Positions 27,000-46,696 of a stretch of DNA of 64,000 bases are shown piece after piece. The stretch lies in the IMG/VR virus record IMGVR_UViG_3300041956_000050, positions 44,064-108,063 of that record. One strand, given 5' to 3'. The notes below the pieces were generated by a model. The model was not told the DNA's origin. It made no database searches and saw only the letters and a list, made by a program, of their open reading frames with translations. The position numbers and the translations under genes were made by a program. Numbering within the stretch: position 1 is the stretch's first letter; each line of letters starts with the position of its first letter. The stretch comes from a virus.

Positions 27000-27890
27000 T
27001 CATCGCGTCTCCGTTCCGCGTGCGTTCCACTCTGCACGCTCGTTGTTTTCTGCCAGCCGTGCCTCGATGGCGTGCTCCAGTGATGCGTAGCACTCATCGA
27101 CGGTGTGCTTGTGGTCACCGACGAAGCCGAAGCAGGAGTCGTGGTAGCCCGTCTCCTCGTCCTGCACGCTGTAGTAGGTCACGTCGCCCTCCAGATAGGA
27201 GGCGTAGACCTTCACCTCGTCGCGCAGCGCAGCCTCGATCTGCTCATCAGTGGCGTCATCACCGATGCACGCCTTGACCATCTCAGGCGTGTCGAAGACG
27301 AAGCCGACGAATGAGGTGTCCCATCCGGCGCTGTCACCCATGAAGCGATCCGTCGAGCGCACGTCGGACTTCTGGAGCACGTCGCCCACCCTCGGTCCTG
27401 CCGACATCGTGATGCCGGAATGCTCGTACACGAACAGACCGATGACAACACGCGCGCCATGCTCAGCCTTGAAGTAGCGTGCCGGGTCCACCGTGAAGCG
27501 ACCGTCGCCGTTGCAGACGTGACAGTCATCGGCGGTGCCGAGAGGATCGCCCTCGACAGGATGCTCGATCACGCCGCTGCCCTTGCACTCGTCGCACTCG
27601 ATCTCGAAGTCGATCTCCGAGATGTCCTCGTCACCGAGATTGTAGCCACGATAGCTGACGGCCATCGTGCCGACGTTGCTCCAGTCGCGCGGATTGGCAT
27701 GACTGATGTCAGATTCCTCGTAGGCGACGGTGCCCTCCAGACCATCGAACGGGAACACCCAGTCGTTGGTCGTCAGGTCGAACTCCTTGATCGTGTACGT
27801 CGTCTCGGGGTGGCCACGATCCTCCACCGCATGGACGTTGTAGACAACATCATTGACGGTGATCGTGCCCTCATCCATGTTGTAGCTCAT
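27000..27890 (-). CDS. hypothetical protein with DnaJ-type CxxCxGxG Zn insertion
   Basis: CDECKGSG...CHVCNGDG. Confidence 0.65.
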   Translation of the reverse strand: MSYNMDEGTITVNDVVYNVHAVEDRGHPETTYTIKEFDLTTNDWVFPFDGLEGTVAYEESDISHANPRDWSNVGTMAVSYRGYNLGDEDISEIDFEIECDECKGSGVIEHPVEGDPLGTADDCHVCNGDGRFTVDPARYFKAEHGARVVIGLFVYEHSGITMSAGPRVGDVLQKSDVRSTDRFMGDSAGWDTSFVGFVFDTPEMVKACIGDDATDEQIEAALRDEVKVYASYLEGDVTYYSVQDEETGYHDSCFGFVGDHKHTVDECYASLEHAIEARLAENNERAEWNARGTETR

Positions 27891-41861: not shown

Positions 41862-42167
41862 CTAGAGCGCCTTGACGGTGACGCGGATCTTCTGCGGCTT
41901 GCCGAGCGCCGCATCCTGCTCCTGCGAGAGATAGACCGGCGAGGAGCCGTTGTCGCTGATCTCCTCGAAGCGGACACCGCCGCCCGACTGCGGCTCGTGC
42001 GGCTTGATCTCGCGGGTCGTGCGGTCGCGCTTGCCGCGCTGCATCGTGATCGTCACGCTGTCCTGCTCGCGCTTGGGGGTGCGCGTGCGGGTGGCAGCGG
42101 GCTTCACCGTCGTCGTGTTCTTCTTGACGGTGGACTTGCGGGTACGACGGGTGGCGGTGGTCGCCAT
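41862..42167 (-). CDS. small basic protein with T/R/K-rich N-terminus
   Basis: AGGAGG RBS before ATG 42167; lies just downstream of ribozyme HH-A. Confidence 0.7.
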   Translation of the reverse strand: MATTATRRTRKSTVKKNTTTVKPAATRTRTPKREQDSVTITMQRGKRDRTTREIKPHEPQSGGGVRFEEISDNGSSPVYLSQEQDAALGKPQKIRVTVKAL

Positions 42168-42223
42168 GATTGATCCTCCTGTGGATCGGTGAGTGGCAGT
42201 CACTATGACTGGCACATACTGTG

Positions 42224-42315
42224 TACCGACAACCCTTGCGGTCGTCAGCGCGAGCACACACTCGCGAAGCCGCCAGTGTTGGCGGACTTTCGGCTGTTTT
42301 CAGCCGTTGTCGGTA
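42224..42315 (-). ncRNA. hammerhead ribozyme variant HH-A (non-canonical permutation)
   Basis: Minus strand: UACCGACAAC-GGCUG AAAA CAGCC-GAAAG(U)CCGCCA ACAC UGGCGG CUU-CGCGAG UGUGUG CUCGCG-CUGACGA-CC GCAA GG-GUUGUCGGUA; predicted cut between 42267 and 42266. Confidence 0.8.
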
Positions 42316-42488
42316 TTGACAACGATCACCCAGTTGGCATCGGGGTGCATTCCCCAGCGCGCCATGAACAGCGCGGCCGACAGCGTGCCGTCGTCATACT
42401 TGTTCATGTCAAGCCCGACCTCCAGTGCCTCGTCAACGGAGTTGACAGTAAGCTCGGGCCAGTCGGACGAATATATGACACTTGTCAT
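42300..42488 (-). CDS. hypothetical protein; its stop codon lies inside HH-A stem II
   Basis: AAGGAG RBS; TGA at 42302-42300. Confidence 0.6.
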   Translation of the reverse strand: MTSVIYSSDWPELTVNSVDEALEVGLDMNKYDDGTLSAALFMARWGMHPDANWVIVVNTDNG

Positions 42489-43308
42489 ATGTGCTCCTTT
42501 GCAGGGGTTTTCAGTTGCAGCAGACGGGACCGTGATCAGTCTCGATCACGTCCGGCCACCAGCTAGGCCGCACGCGGATACCGCAGCGCTCGCGCCCGCC
42601 GATCTTGCCCGAGGGCATTACCGCGCAGCCGATGATGTCAATTTCGACATCATTCATGTCCGCGAAATGCTCCGCATCGCGCTCGATGACATCGTACATG
42701 TCATCATGCACCCTGTAATAGCGGCGAGCGATGAAGCGGCCAGTGGCGAAGTCGGTGAACTCGAACGGGAATGTGTTACGCATAATGACATGCTCCTTTC
42801 AGGGTTTGATACTAGCGCCAGCTACTGCGGCGACGCTGATTGTCAGCGAACCACGCCTCGTAATGGCGCTCGGACAGTGACAGCGGCACGACATTCGCGC
42901 CCGAGCCGATGGCCGGATCGACCATCAGCGTCTCTGCCGCCATTACTGACAGCGGCGGCTGCTTGGGTGTGCGCTTGCGAGCCGGACGCTTACGCGGCGG
43001 CTCAACGGTGACGACAGCGGTCTGGACAGCCGCAATCGCGGCATCGAAGTCGAACATGTCAGCATCCCTCCGGACGCGAGTAGGTGACAAAGCCATCGGC
43101 CTGGACGTGAGCGTCAAGCCAACGGCACCCAACGGGGCGCGTGAGAATGGCGTCACCGTTGACGGTATCGTCAGCGATGTGCTGCCAGTCGTCGCCCATA
43201 AGGGCGATACGCGCCTTCTGCGCATCGGTGAGCGGATTCATGTCACGGAACGCTTCCCGTAGGGCCATGTCACGCATATTGTTCACCCTTTCCTTGTTTG
43301 ATCCTACC

Positions 43309-43605
43309 CTACGCCACGTAGGGGTCGTAGTTGTAGAACGTTCCGACCTCACTGTCAGTGATCGGAGCGCACGCCTCAGCGTCCGCCTCCAGTCGCCGGA
43401 GCGTGCGCTCCAGCGCAGCCAGCGCACGGCCGGAGCCAACGCGAGGGTCGGCGGTGCCGGAGAAGACCTCGATCTTCGCACGCTTGGCACCCTGAGCCTG
43501 CGACTCTCCGAGCCAGACCTGACGCCCATTGGGCAGGATCGCGGCGATCACCGTGGTGCCGACATTCGTCGGAATGGCAACCGTATCGAGCGTAGTGGTG
43601 AGCAT
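43309..43605 (-). CDS. hypothetical protein downstream of HH-B
   Basis: AAGGAG RBS. Confidence 0.65.
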   Translation of the reverse strand: MLTTTLDTVAIPTNVGTTVIAAILPNGRQVWLGESQAQGAKRAKIEVFSGTADPRVGSGRALAALERTLRRLEADAEACAPITDSEVGTFYNYDPYVA

Positions 43606-43626
43606 TACTGTTTACTCCTTACTGGA

Positions 43627-43715
43627 AGTGTCTGATCCCCCGTAGGGTCATCAGCGAGGGCACACACCCTCGAACGCCCGTAGGCGTTTCGGCCGTTTTC
43701 GGCCGATCAGTCACT
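43627..43715 (-). ncRNA. hammerhead ribozyme variant HH-B (same topology as HH-A)
   Basis: Minus strand: CUGAUC-GGCCG AAAA CGGCC-GAAACGCC UACG GGCGUU-CGAGGG UGUGUG CCCUCG-CUGAUGA-CCC UACG GGG-GAUCAG; predicted cut between 43673 and 43672. Confidence 0.8.
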
Positions 43716-43749
43716 ACTGTTTCACCCCTATGGGGTGGCCGGAATTGGC

Positions 43750-43929
43750 TCAGCCGCAGACCGAGCTACGCTGCCCGAAACCGAGCGCACGCATATCGCG
43801 AAGCCGGATGGAATCCTCACGCTCACGCTCATCGGCGAGATACTGCTCACGGACCCAGGTGAAGTCCTGCGAAGCGGACGCGACGAGGTTGGAACCGGTG
43901 CCCTCGGAGGGATCGAAAATACGCTGCAT
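43750..43929 (-). CDS. hypothetical protein
   Basis: GAAAGG RBS before MQRIFDPS. Confidence 0.5.
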   Translation of the reverse strand: MQRIFDPSEGTGSNLVASASQDFTWVREQYLADEREREDSIRLRDMRALGFGQRSSVCG

Positions 43930-44159
43930 TTGACTACCTTTCGTGTGGAGAGACAGTGTAAACACTGTCATTGATATGAAATATGACAAGTGGAATATGA
44001 CGTTTCGCTACCCTTGACATTCCACTCCCTTCCCGGCCTCTCCCGCTTCTTCCTTCTTGCGCGAGAGGTCCGTGTCAGCATTAGTGACACAGTGAAGCGG
44101 GGAATCTGCCCCGCAGCGGCGAAAATGTGCGCCCAGGAGCGTTCACTGTGTCAATAATC

Positions 44160-44441
44160 CTACCACTTCGTGCGCTGCGTACCGCGCGCCTGACGCCTGC
44201 GGGCGTGACGGCCGTTGATCGGCTTCTGGTGGAAGACCATCGGCTGCACATCGGCCTCGGCCACGCGGCCTCCAGTGACGCCGACACGAGTCTTGACATT
44301 CACTGTGTGACCGTTCTGCTTCGGTGAGGTGCGCAGACCCTTGACAGAAGTCAAGCCGGTGTAGCGCATATCGCCAGCGCCGTAGCCGGAGACGCCAGTG
44401 CAAGCGGTGCTGATCGGTGCTTGGGTGATTTCTGACAGCAT
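44160..44441 (-). CDS. hypothetical protein
   Basis: AAGGAG RBS. Confidence 0.55.
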   Translation of the reverse strand: MLSEITQAPISTACTGVSGYGAGDMRYTGLTSVKGLRTSPKQNGHTVNVKTRVGVTGGRVAEADVQPMVFHQKPINGRHARRRQARGTQRTKW

Positions 44442-44509
44442 TTTGACTCCTTTGGAGGGATGGTGGGGTGACAGTCATCTGTGCTGCCACCCCGTAGGGG
44501 TTGTTCGGC

Positions 44510-44794
44510 CTACAGCGAGGCGTAGTAGAGCGAGGCGTCGAGCATGGTGGGGAAGATGCGGCAGAAGTCGCGCATCGTGCGGTAGGGGCGAAGCCCGCTG
44601 TCACGGTGAGCGGAGTTGATCCGCTGGAACTGCCCGCTGCTCGGCTTGAGCGTGGCCATCTGCGCATCGCGCTTGGGGTCGCGCATGGTGGGGGCGCTCG
44701 TCTGCGCCTTACGCGGGAGCGCGATGGGCGCAATGGTGGTGCCCTCAAGGAGAGCGTTGACTTCTTCGATGGTGGCGATCATGGTGGCGGTCAT
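44510..44794 (-). CDS. hypothetical protein, first gene of the leftward arm
   Basis: GAAAGG RBS before MTATMIAT; lies just downstream of HH-C. Confidence 0.6.
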   Translation of the reverse strand: MTATMIATIEEVNALLEGTTIAPIALPRKAQTSAPTMRDPKRDAQMATLKPSSGQFQRINSAHRDSGLRPYRTMRDFCRIFPTMLDASLYYASL

Positions 44795-44833
44795 TTTGAC
44801 CCTTTCCGACAGCGTAGCTGTCAATGGTGGTGT

Positions 44834-44904
44834 GTGTTTCGGCCTTCCCGAAGGGCCATCCTCAGGCACTTTGTCAGCAAAGCTGACAGGGGACTGTGCG
44901 ACAC
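44834..44904 (-). ncRNA. type III hammerhead ribozyme HH-C
   Basis: Minus strand: GUGUC-GCAC[...UGUCAGC UUU GCUGACA...]GUGC-CUGAGGA-U-GGCC(CUUCGGGAA)GGCC-GAAACAC; GUC cut between 44900 and 44899. Confidence 0.8.
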
Positions 44905-45638
44905 TGCGCAGATCGAGTTTCCAGACCCCGTAGGGGTCAACGAGTTGCTGCGCTTTGTCCGTGAGGCTTCGCTCCCGGTTTCTGCCGGGTTGGCTGCCCT
45001 GAATCCGTAGGATCACGACTCCCTACGGGAGGATGCGAATAAGCGCTCCGTCGTGTCGCTTGTCTCCCCTACGGGGAGGGTTGCCATGTGGGCCAGCGTG
45101 ATCTACCGCCTCGGCGCTATCTGGACGCATCCTCGCATGATTGTTCCGTGCCCTCACGATTATTGGGCACATCCCTACTTCCCGGCGCTGCGATGCCTGC
45201 TAGGCGACAACGCACACGACGGTTTTCGACCGCACTGTTCACGCAACCGTAAGCCCCAAAGGGACGGCCCTCACGCACGCCTAGCCGTGAGGAGGGAGAT
45301 TGCGCACCGATCCGGCTCATGCGAGCGTGTTCTCGGACGGATTTGCACTGGGCACTAGCCCACACATGCCTATGTGGGTGCCCGCTGTGTGTCGGCGTCG
45401 TGCGCTGCCCGCTGTGGGCCTTAGGCGCTGCGCTCCGGTTATGTGGGAGCGGCCTGTGTCGGGAGCGGACGGCTCGACCGACGCCCCAAAGATCGGCCGG
45501 GTTCCTAAAGAGAATCTAAAGAACCCCTCTCGGAGCGGATCAAAAAGTGCCGTTTTGCAGGGAAGATAAAGTTAGATAAAGATGTCTCAAGACCCCCAAA
45601 TTGGCCAATAGTCAGGATTGTTGGCATTGGGAAAAACC

Positions 45639-46213: not shown

Positions 46214-46432
46214 ATGAGGGCGATGTTCTACGAGTACAACGATGTGCGGTCAGATCCGGAGCTTCCGCTGTTTGCGGTCATGGTCGAGAACCAGGCGGCG
46301 GGGCTACGGCTGGGACTACAGCGCGAGTCCGAGCGCAAGGGCAGCGAACGCCGGATCGTGATCGAGCCGCTGACCGCCGAGCAGGCGCAGAAGGAACTCG
46401 CGGGCGGCACGAAGTTCGTGGAGGTGAAGTAA
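46214..46432 (+). CDS. hypothetical protein, first gene of the rightward accessory arm
   Basis: GGAGG RBS before MRAMFYEY. Confidence 0.6.
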   Translation: MRAMFYEYNDVRSDPELPLFAVMVENQAAGLRLGLQRESERKGSERRIVIEPLTAEQAQKELAGGTKFVEVK

Positions 46433-46435
46433 GCA

Positions 46436-46696
46436 ATGGCTACACGCAGAGTGACCCCGCACGAGTTGGTGGTCGGCTCGGACGGCACGGCCTGGCAGGT
46501 GTTCCGGATTCGCCACGACGATGGCGCGTACACGGCGGTCACCGTGATGCAGAGTGCTCCGGCGCAGCGCGGGCCGAAGGCGACTGAGGAACGGCGGGTC
46601 GGCTACTCGTCCGCGCTCAACGTCCACACAGTGATGACAGAACCGCTGGTGTGGATCGAGGACTACGCGGAGCGCCACAAGCCGAGGGCGGCGTAG
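46436..46696 (+). CDS. hypothetical protein
   Basis: GGAGG RBS, in operon. Confidence 0.6.
   Translation: MATRRVTPHELVVGSDGTAWQVFRIRHDDGAYTAVTVMQSAPAQRGPKATEERRVGYSSALNVHTVMTEPLVWIEDYAERHKPRAA

Follow-up and report, generated by a model that had tools for sequence, protein, structure and literature searches.

Background

Clustered hammerhead self-cleaving RNAs that flank genes have been described in prophages by Perreault et al. 2011 (PMC3088659), who found that triple arrays cleave in vitro as well as in vivo and proposed that they process transcripts into gene-length mRNAs. For D. vulgaris, cleavage in vivo has been reported for three type II copies located close to phage genes (PMC8782182), and in a 2019 review the purpose of phage hammerheads is still listed as open (PMC6765202). 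In this work we analyse three hammerhead (HH) motifs, named HH-C, HH-B and HH-A in 5' to 3' order, on the minus strand of an uncultured soil phage. They are found at positions 42,224 to 44,904 of a stretch of 64,000 nucleotides (nt), here called the window, to which all coordinates refer. The window covers positions 44,064 to 108,063 of the IMG/VR virus record IMGVR_UViG_3300041956_000050 and is the right-hand part of this 108-kb record, which has an estimated completeness of 96%.

The array layout was already known, as both the clustering of phage hammerheads and the idea of transcript processing come from Perreault et al. 2011 (PMC3088659). Like those arrays, the present locus has several co-oriented hammerheads within a few kb of a phage early region, next to flanking genes or short blocks of unknown function, and the role proposed is the same, i.e. 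turning a long transcript into gene-length mRNAs. The three sites are found within 2.7 kb of a phage genome, on the coding strand of nine small open reading frames (ORFs). Unlike the published arrays, this one consists of one type III hammerhead and two re-wired copies with five helices. We consider it likely that the leftward early transcript carries three cis-acting hammerhead self-cleaving RNAs which separate blocks of genes.

The connections that a hammerhead can have were treated by Eckert et al. 2023 (PMC10085705), in a permutation scheme of three blocks, C, G and S. The known alignments have no insertion of more than 1-2 nt between CUGAnGA and the stems; the scheme rests on this rule, and a splitting of Block C was assumed not to occur. 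HH-A and HH-B resemble the SGC, CSG and GCS permutations in being natural hammerheads with an unexpected connection which standard models miss. Whereas those permutations reorder intact blocks, HH-A and HH-B keep the order of type II and split Block C between A9 and the strand of stem II. Together with a copy from a second phage lineage (the L239-type copy, see below) they may constitute a new natural hammerhead wiring, opened at A9/G10.1, that would combine the loop contact of type III with the capped products of type II, work as a one-way switch and probably have originated by fusion. This proposal is tentative, and we give it slightly less than an even chance.

Results and discussion

Detection of the motifs

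The descriptor scan required CUGANGA, GAAA, an A15.1-U16.1 pair, a nucleotide other than G at position 17 (H17) and helices of at least 3-4 bp, in type I, type II-like and type III orders. With strict as well as relaxed settings, exactly three sites were found, both in the window and in the whole 108-kb genome, all on the minus strand (Table 1). A Markov-1 null gave 0.003 matches per type per 64 kb for the strict settings, and 0.07 (type III) and 0.28 (type II-like) per window for the relaxed ones; these numbers have to be read with the caveat that the settings were picked after the motifs had been seen. Every base of the core of hammerheads (Rfam clan CL00010; C3 U4 G5 A6 N7 G8 A9, G12 A13 A14, A15.1-U16.1 and H17) is present in all three motifs. 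The predicted cleavage site reads GUC in HH-C; in the two other motifs it is UU with a C after it. Each of these sites is followed, 67-105 nt further 3', by the start of a gene which has a Shine-Dalgarno site.

An initial annotation, made by inspection of the sequence, had placed the three motifs at the same minus-strand positions, and the scan agrees with it. The segment lengths given there (1227 nt for 44899-43673 and 1406 nt for 43672-42267) are correct, as are the downstream ATG codons at 44794, 43605 and 42167. A read-through transcript would be cut in the way it described: the three cores are co-oriented, a gene follows each of them, and no terminator-like site was found on the minus strand from 45500 to 41500, including the stretches between the ribozymes.

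Table 1. Minus-strand features of the array and its surroundings, in window coordinates.
Feature	Position	Strand	Description
Promoter-like site	45563-45590	minus	TTGAGA-16 nt-TATCTT; consensus scan, 9/12 matches
Non-coding leader	44905-45555	minus	~650 nt, hairpin-rich; would be removed by HH-C
HH-C	44834-44904	minus	Type III hammerhead; descriptor scan, complete core
HH-C stem III and C17	44900 (C17)	minus	GUGU/ACAC; predicted cleavage between 44900 and 44899
HH-C stem I		minus	GCAC/GUGC, then internal loop and 7-bp hairpin
HH-C CUGAGGA	44865-44859	minus	Extra U (44858) after A9
HH-C stem II and GAAA	44840-44837 (GAAA)	minus	GGCC/GGCC
Genes 1-3	44794-44510, 44441-44160, 43929-43750	minus	Segment 1 after predicted cleavage; Shine-Dalgarno motifs, GC3 0.72-0.89
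HH-B	43628-43710	minus	Re-wired five-helix hammerhead; z = -5.4 vs shuffles
HH-B closing 5' strand	43710-43705	minus	
HH-B stem II hairpin	43704-43691	minus	AAAA loop
HH-B GAAA	43690-43687	minus	
HH-B stem III	43687-43674	minus	Capped
HH-B U17	43673	minus	Predicted cleavage between 43673 and 43672
HH-B stem I hairpin	43672-43655	minus	UGUGUG loop
HH-B CUGAUGA	43654-43648	minus	
HH-B small hairpin	43647-43638	minus	
HH-B closing 3' strand	43637-43632	minus	
Genes 4-8	43605-43309, 43277-43059, 43057-42812, 42783-42511, 42488-42300	minus	ORFs; predicted segment 2
HH-A	42224-42315	minus	Paralogue of HH-B; z = -4.85 vs shuffles
HH-A closing 5' strand	42315-42306	minus	
HH-A stem II hairpin	42305-42292	minus	
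HH-A GAAA	42291-42288	minus	
HH-A stem III	42288-42268	minus	Capped
HH-A U17	42267	minus	Predicted cleavage between 42267 and 42266
HH-A stem I hairpin	42266-42249	minus	
HH-A CUGACGA	42248-42242	minus	
HH-A small hairpin	42241-42234	minus	
HH-A closing 3' strand	42233-42224	minus	
Gene 9	41862-42167	minus	First gene of the segment 3' of HH-A; Shine-Dalgarno AGGAGG, GC3 0.94

Architecture of HH-A and HH-B

The two copies have the same order of parts: a closing 5' strand, a hairpin with AAAA loop, GAAA, a capped stem III, U17, stem I, CUGAYGA, a small hairpin and the closing 3' strand. Stem I has 6 bp and a UGUGUG loop, the small hairpin has 2-3 bp, and there are zero spacer nucleotides at every junction. 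The order of the blocks is that of type II, yet all three hammerhead stems are capped, and the two ends of the RNA enter between A9 and stem II by way of the extra hairpin and the closing helix, which brings the number of helices to five. In HH-B, stem III and the small hairpin both end in a UACG tetraloop.

A model built from HH-B only finds HH-A with 47.5 bits (E = 9e-12) and has no other match in the genome. Between HH-A and HH-B, 8 of the 25 base pairs have changed on both sides and none on one side only, and the core differs at the free position N7 only. The AAAA hairpin is, judged by its sequence, stem II, since canonical type III copies pair a UGUGUG stem I with an AAAA stem II. Such canonical type III hammerheads, with a 6-bp UGUGUG stem I and a 4-5-bp AAAA stem II as in HH-A and HH-B, are found in the loci L113, L120 and L121. 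HH-A and HH-B share stem I, stem II and the core with this UGUGUG/AAAA subfamily, which often has a 1-nt insert after A9 and is arrayed before genes. They differ from it in that stem III is capped rather than open, the chain is broken between A9 and stem II, and a hairpin and a closing helix are added. In our reading, HH-A and HH-B are a type III hammerhead common in phages that has been re-wired in a way rarely seen, with stem II placed on a perfect four-way junction.

The comparison with type II hammerheads (RF02276; the GSC order of Eckert et al. 2023) gives both likenesses and differences. The order GAAA, stem III hairpin, cleavage site, stem I hairpin and CUGANGA is the same, the ends emerge on the side of stem II, and the products bear the hairpins of stem III and stem I as caps. 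In type II, however, an open stem II without any loop II directly abuts A9 and G12, whereas in HH-A and HH-B stem II is capped, and the open helix is a separate, fifth helix which two hairpins separate from the core. Alternative registers giving a canonical type II fold were tried and rejected, as none of them pairs. The pseudoknot of type II between loop I and the 3' tail (here ACAC/GUGU, with an ACAC tail) is possible in HH-A and HH-B; it was set aside, being absent in the L239-type copy of the second lineage. With respect to the rule of Eckert et al., GAAA abuts the capped stem II as expected, but between A9 and stem II there are a hairpin, the closing helix and the two ends of the chain.

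Relatives and covariation

Viral contigs were scanned for the UGUGUG/AAAA loop pair, which gave at least 118 loci (L140-L257, IMG/VR). About one chance match is expected, an estimate made from the specificity of the pattern and a rough guess of the size of the collection. Among the 136 loop-pair instances listed, 134 fit the full type III description, and the type III copies listed have 68 different stem I sequences. An insertion or mismatch of 1 nt after A9 is seen in 70 of the listed instances and one of 2 nt in two. HH-A and HH-B thus seem to be opened exactly where this subfamily tolerates small insertions. Members of the subfamily often come in 2-4 copies per contig, with a hairpin before each copy that was inspected.

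When the listed loci were scanned for the permuted order, a single element came up, with the same sequence in L239, L244 and L206, in an unrelated phage of ~40% GC; no further permuted copies were found among the at least 118 loci listed. This L239-type copy has the same five helices and zero-spacer junctions, and the model of HH-B only aligns it from end to end (E ~1e-7). Early pattern scans had missed it because they required CC before GAAA; those scans returned only chance matches and the type II look-alikes L025 and L031. The re-wired form would appear to recur but to be rare.

In the two lineages taken together, which comprise four distinct sequences, 14 of the 25 pairs are changed on both sides and none on one side only. 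No helix is without covariation, and this holds for the closing stem and the small hairpin too. Furthermore, 97.8% of the cells pair across the two lineages, compared with 28-37% when the partner column is slid.

The L239-type element of L244 is arrayed with four type III copies, with a gene after each, and the stop codon of the upstream gene falls within its closing 5' strand. In the 5' half of the element, stem II has exactly the sequence that this stem has in type III copies from L240 and L188, and the region of the stem III loop resembles the hairpins that precede type III copies. Because of these two similarities, we suggest that the re-wired form arose by fusion of two neighbouring array copies. 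One type III copy would have given its 3' half and the next copy its 5' half, with the hairpin that separated them kept in the middle.

Additionally, type II hammerhead-like copies were seen in L031 (7945-8024, 7555-7639 and 1752-1856) and L025 (3682-3773 and 3322-3405), the best of them, in L031, reaching 26.7 bits on RF02276, short of the cut-off. In these copies the 3' tail, GUCAG or a variant of it, is the complement of the CUGAC box in the same copy, so that the core can be sequestered as in HH-A and HH-B, here without a partner 5' strand.

DNA contigs from four soil runs have no variation within the ribozymes; no RNA run was listed among those containing the region. In the same kind of contigs a related strain was noticed in which 109 different letters replace 42211-42318, the position of HH-A, while 744 nt over genes 4-7 (42704-43447) are absent or replaced and gene 8 is ~13% diverged.

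Predicted alternative fold and cleavage products

In all three re-wired copies, HH-A, HH-B and L239-type, the sequence of the closing 5' strand (CUGAUC, CCGACAAC and CUGAUCA) is similar to that of the catalytic box, and for this reason the 3' closing strand can pair with either. The minimum free energy (MFE) structure of both HH-A and HH-B consists of four local hairpins in which CUGAYGA is paired with the 3' closing strand. N7 is C in HH-A and U in HH-B, and the partner base in the 3' closing strand differs accordingly.

At the start of the predicted 3' product there is the stem I hairpin and, behind it, a hairpin of box and closing strand, and the predicted 5' product has the stem III hairpin at its end. 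The initial annotation had suggested that the closing stem might hold the cleaved halves together. This is not what the predictions give: each product refolds on its own, and staying paired gains -1.6 kcal/mol in HH-B and -7.1 kcal/mol in HH-A, the latter from pairs outside the closing stem. We infer that the 3' closing strand may serve as a device for release and against re-ligation, possibly also as a switch. After cutting it would fold back on the CUGAYGA box, which would release the pieces and block re-ligation. Both new ends would be left in hairpins, the upstream piece ending with the stem III hairpin and a 2',3'-cyclic phosphate and the downstream piece beginning with the stem I hairpin and a 5'-OH.

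Evidence for and against self-cleavage

A number of observations speak against three active ribozymes. No Rfam hammerhead model attains its threshold for any of the motifs. None was called when the whole window was searched at the gathering threshold and the region at E<=10, and RF00008, RF02276 and RF00163, searched singly against the genome at E<=10, missed all three. On a 141-nt slice, the part of HH-B that RF02276 could align was the core, GAAA through CUGAUGA (14.8 bits, positions 4-56 of the 66 of the model), with the pairs of stem II left unplaced, a match that can also be counted in favour of the re-wired hammerhead. The insertion of HH-A and HH-B is at the link between A9 and stem II, where published alignments have at most 1-2 nt, and might slow or abolish catalysis. 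The active fold is equalled in stability by the inactive one with the paired box (-46.8 vs -46.9 kcal/mol for HH-A and -43.6 vs -44.7 kcal/mol for HH-B). The covariation comes from four distinct sequences only, and their alignment is fitted to the model. For HH-C the hammerhead fold has -17.8 kcal/mol against -23.8 kcal/mol for the MFE, the pseudoknot being uncounted, and there are no relatives for comparison. Finally, promoter-like sites are no more numerous than chance in the consensus scan.

The silence of Rfam is weak evidence, because Rfam also under-calls clear canonical relatives: L031 (26.7 bits) and L244 (41.8 bits on RF00008, one of its four type III copies seen) pass the helix rules yet stay below the threshold. 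A single RF02276 match elsewhere in the window, at 27234-27297 (14.5 bits), was rejected, as it is within coding sequence and has no GAAA.

Some of these observations fit an explanation in which HH-A and HH-B derive from hammerheads and are no longer efficient cleavers. The four tandem hairpins would then be intergenic stabilisers, sites for nucleases or other proteins to bind, or slow conditional ribozymes held off by the alternative fold. It draws on the stability of the four-hairpin MFE, which is equal to or above that of the hammerhead fold, on an insertion larger than known hammerheads tolerate (PMC10085705) and on the stem II pairs that RF02276 could not place. We nevertheless find it improbable. 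HH-A, HH-B and the L239-type copy have each preserved the full set of catalytic bases, while compensatory changes have occurred in all helices, the junctions have no spacer in either lineage, and the UGUGUG/AAAA loop pair of the canonical subfamily, through which the putative tertiary contact would be made, is retained. Moreover, the long-range closing stem covaries, and tandem hairpins would have no role for it.

HH-C is supported by its complete core, the low chance expectation, its strand and its position. It is not a member of the UGUGUG/AAAA type III subfamily. With one extra U it keeps to the rule of at most 1-2 nt between blocks and stem II. Its stems have 4 bp each, and it has no relatives and thus no covariation. 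The MFE contains a UCCC/GGGA pairing, which in the hammerhead fold would become a possible pseudoknot between the internal loop of stem I and loop II; pseudoknot contacts of such kind are present in ~40% of hammerheads according to Perreault et al. (PMC3088659).

HH-C could also be a chance hammerhead-like motif in a structured leader, with only HH-A and HH-B being real. It gave no Rfam signal even in a 121-nt slice, its region folds no better than shuffles (z = +0.35), the hammerhead fold is 6 kcal/mol above the MFE, relatives are not available, the type III null rises to 0.07 per window under relaxed rules, and the descriptor settings were chosen after HH-C had been seen. Against a chance origin, the complete canonical core with 4-bp stems passes at the strict setting (null 0.003), and the motif is on the same strand as the two other hammerheads, 1.2 kb away from them and 105 nt before the gene with which the arm begins. 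HH-C has the extra U after A9 and a GGCC-GAAAC stem II in common with the type II hammerhead-like L025 and L031 (26.7 bits for L031, sub-threshold), and the 4-bp loop-loop pairing is of the kind reported by Perreault et al. A chance origin is on this evidence unlikely, although it keeps perhaps the weight of a serious doubt, and we retain HH-C as a probable third hammerhead.

Genome context

The genome encodes a Mu-like portal, an E-type capsid protein and a UvrD-like helicase. The only cultured kin of the portal is Gordonia phage Jumbo (21.5% identity), and blastn against a phage database, in near and distant modes, gave no match. No relatives of an ORF of 387 amino acids, the helicase, gene 8 or gene 9 were found in viral, metagenome or genome contigs or in a large protein database. 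The relatives of the portal (L083-L089) are fragments in which the hammerhead motif was not found.

The nine ORFs from 44794 to 41862 have a G+C content at third codon positions (GC3) of 0.71-0.94, all with Shine-Dalgarno-like motifs, and on these grounds the minus strand is very probably expressed there. None of them matched in a search of Pfam and PHROG. The stop codon of gene 8 (42302-42300) falls within stem II of HH-A, so that the closing 5' strand and part of stem II overlap the last codons and the stop codon of this gene.

The promoter-like site at 45590-45563 is the probable start of the leftward early transcript, to judge from its match to the consensus. It is located in a divergent control region, where plus-strand genes with Shine-Dalgarno sites begin at ~46214 and ~46436. 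The plus-strand sequence from 46214 to 46696 holds two short adjoining genes with strong Shine-Dalgarno sites, opposite the leftward promoter region, an arrangement reminiscent of divergent regulatory switches or of toxin-antitoxin-like pairs. On the upstream side the promoter-like site is adjoined by three tandem hairpins with the common core GCAAAUAGC (minus strand 45712-45698, 45678-45663 and 45651-45637), each followed by a U-tract. These could be terminators insulating the early promoter or repeated operator palindromes.

The leader has no convincing ORF, none with a Shine-Dalgarno site by eye, and no Rfam match. GC hairpins are numerous in it, their loops being UACG or GUAG. Short GC hairpins built as CCCC-UACG-GGGG also recur after genes and ahead of the ribozymes (44486-44497, 44923-44934 and 43721-43735, one of them with an AUA loop). 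The 230-nt gap between genes 2 and 3 has on the minus strand, at 44085-44152, an 11-bp inverted repeat (GACACAGUGAA / UUCACUGUGUC) around a GCGGGG/CCCCGC hairpin, a possible internal regulatory element of segment 1.

Proposed processing of the transcript

Cleavage at HH-C would remove the structured leader of ~650 nt, releasing it with a 2',3'-cyclic phosphate at its end, and HH-B and HH-A would cut between the gene blocks, i.e. genes 1-3, genes 4-8 and gene 9 onward. Each block would then probably form an mRNA by itself, with a stability and a translation independent of the others. The role would be that of the Perreault arrays, and the point of the re-wired form would be the hairpins with which it caps the ends. 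A comparable arrangement is RiboJ, reportedly an engineered single part made by Lou and co-workers in 2012 from a satellite-RNA ribozyme, which is said to cut away upstream RNA before a ribosome-binding site and to leave a 5' untranslated region (UTR) that starts with a hairpin. The phage motifs resemble it in placing a hammerhead just 5' of a ribosome-binding site and giving a defined downstream 5' UTR, and differ in forming a natural phage array.

The 5'-OH ends were initially expected to resist RNase E and RNase J. Only half of this is right, and the RNase J part has to be given up: the 5'-OH product of glmS is degraded by the exonuclease RNase J1 (Collins 2007, as summarised in PMC3328962). 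Protection would therefore need the terminal hairpin and not the 5'-OH.

A stronger idea of the same annotation was that the two segments cut out of the transcript (44899-43673 and 43672-42267) might be closed into circular mRNAs of several genes each, with RtcB or the ribozymes themselves doing the ligation. Hammerhead products bear 2',3'-cyclic phosphate and 5'-OH ends, which is the type that RtcB joins. Viroids and retrozymes do use hammerheads for making circles (PMC6765202). Here, however, the situation differs from theirs: no ligase gene of the RtcB, Rnl or another RNA-ligase family was found in the 96%-complete phage genome, the ribozymes flanking a segment are not alike, and their chimeric halves form no hammerhead, the predicted cross-pairings of neighbouring ends not being hammerhead-like. 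Both segment ends are predicted to be buried in separate hairpins. Circular or spliced products were also sought for the arrays of Perreault et al., and none were found (PMC3088659). Circles of this kind are extremely improbable.

Conclusion

As an array, the locus is one more example of a known and still unexplained habit of phages. The useful part is the two re-wired copies, which break the published rule that CUGANGA never separates from stem II, were missed by the Rfam models tested and are now joined by a covarying copy from a second lineage. Should they be active, the range of structures to look for in ribozyme searches would become wider, and they would suggest why phages pick particular topologies, namely for control over which product ends are capped by hairpins.

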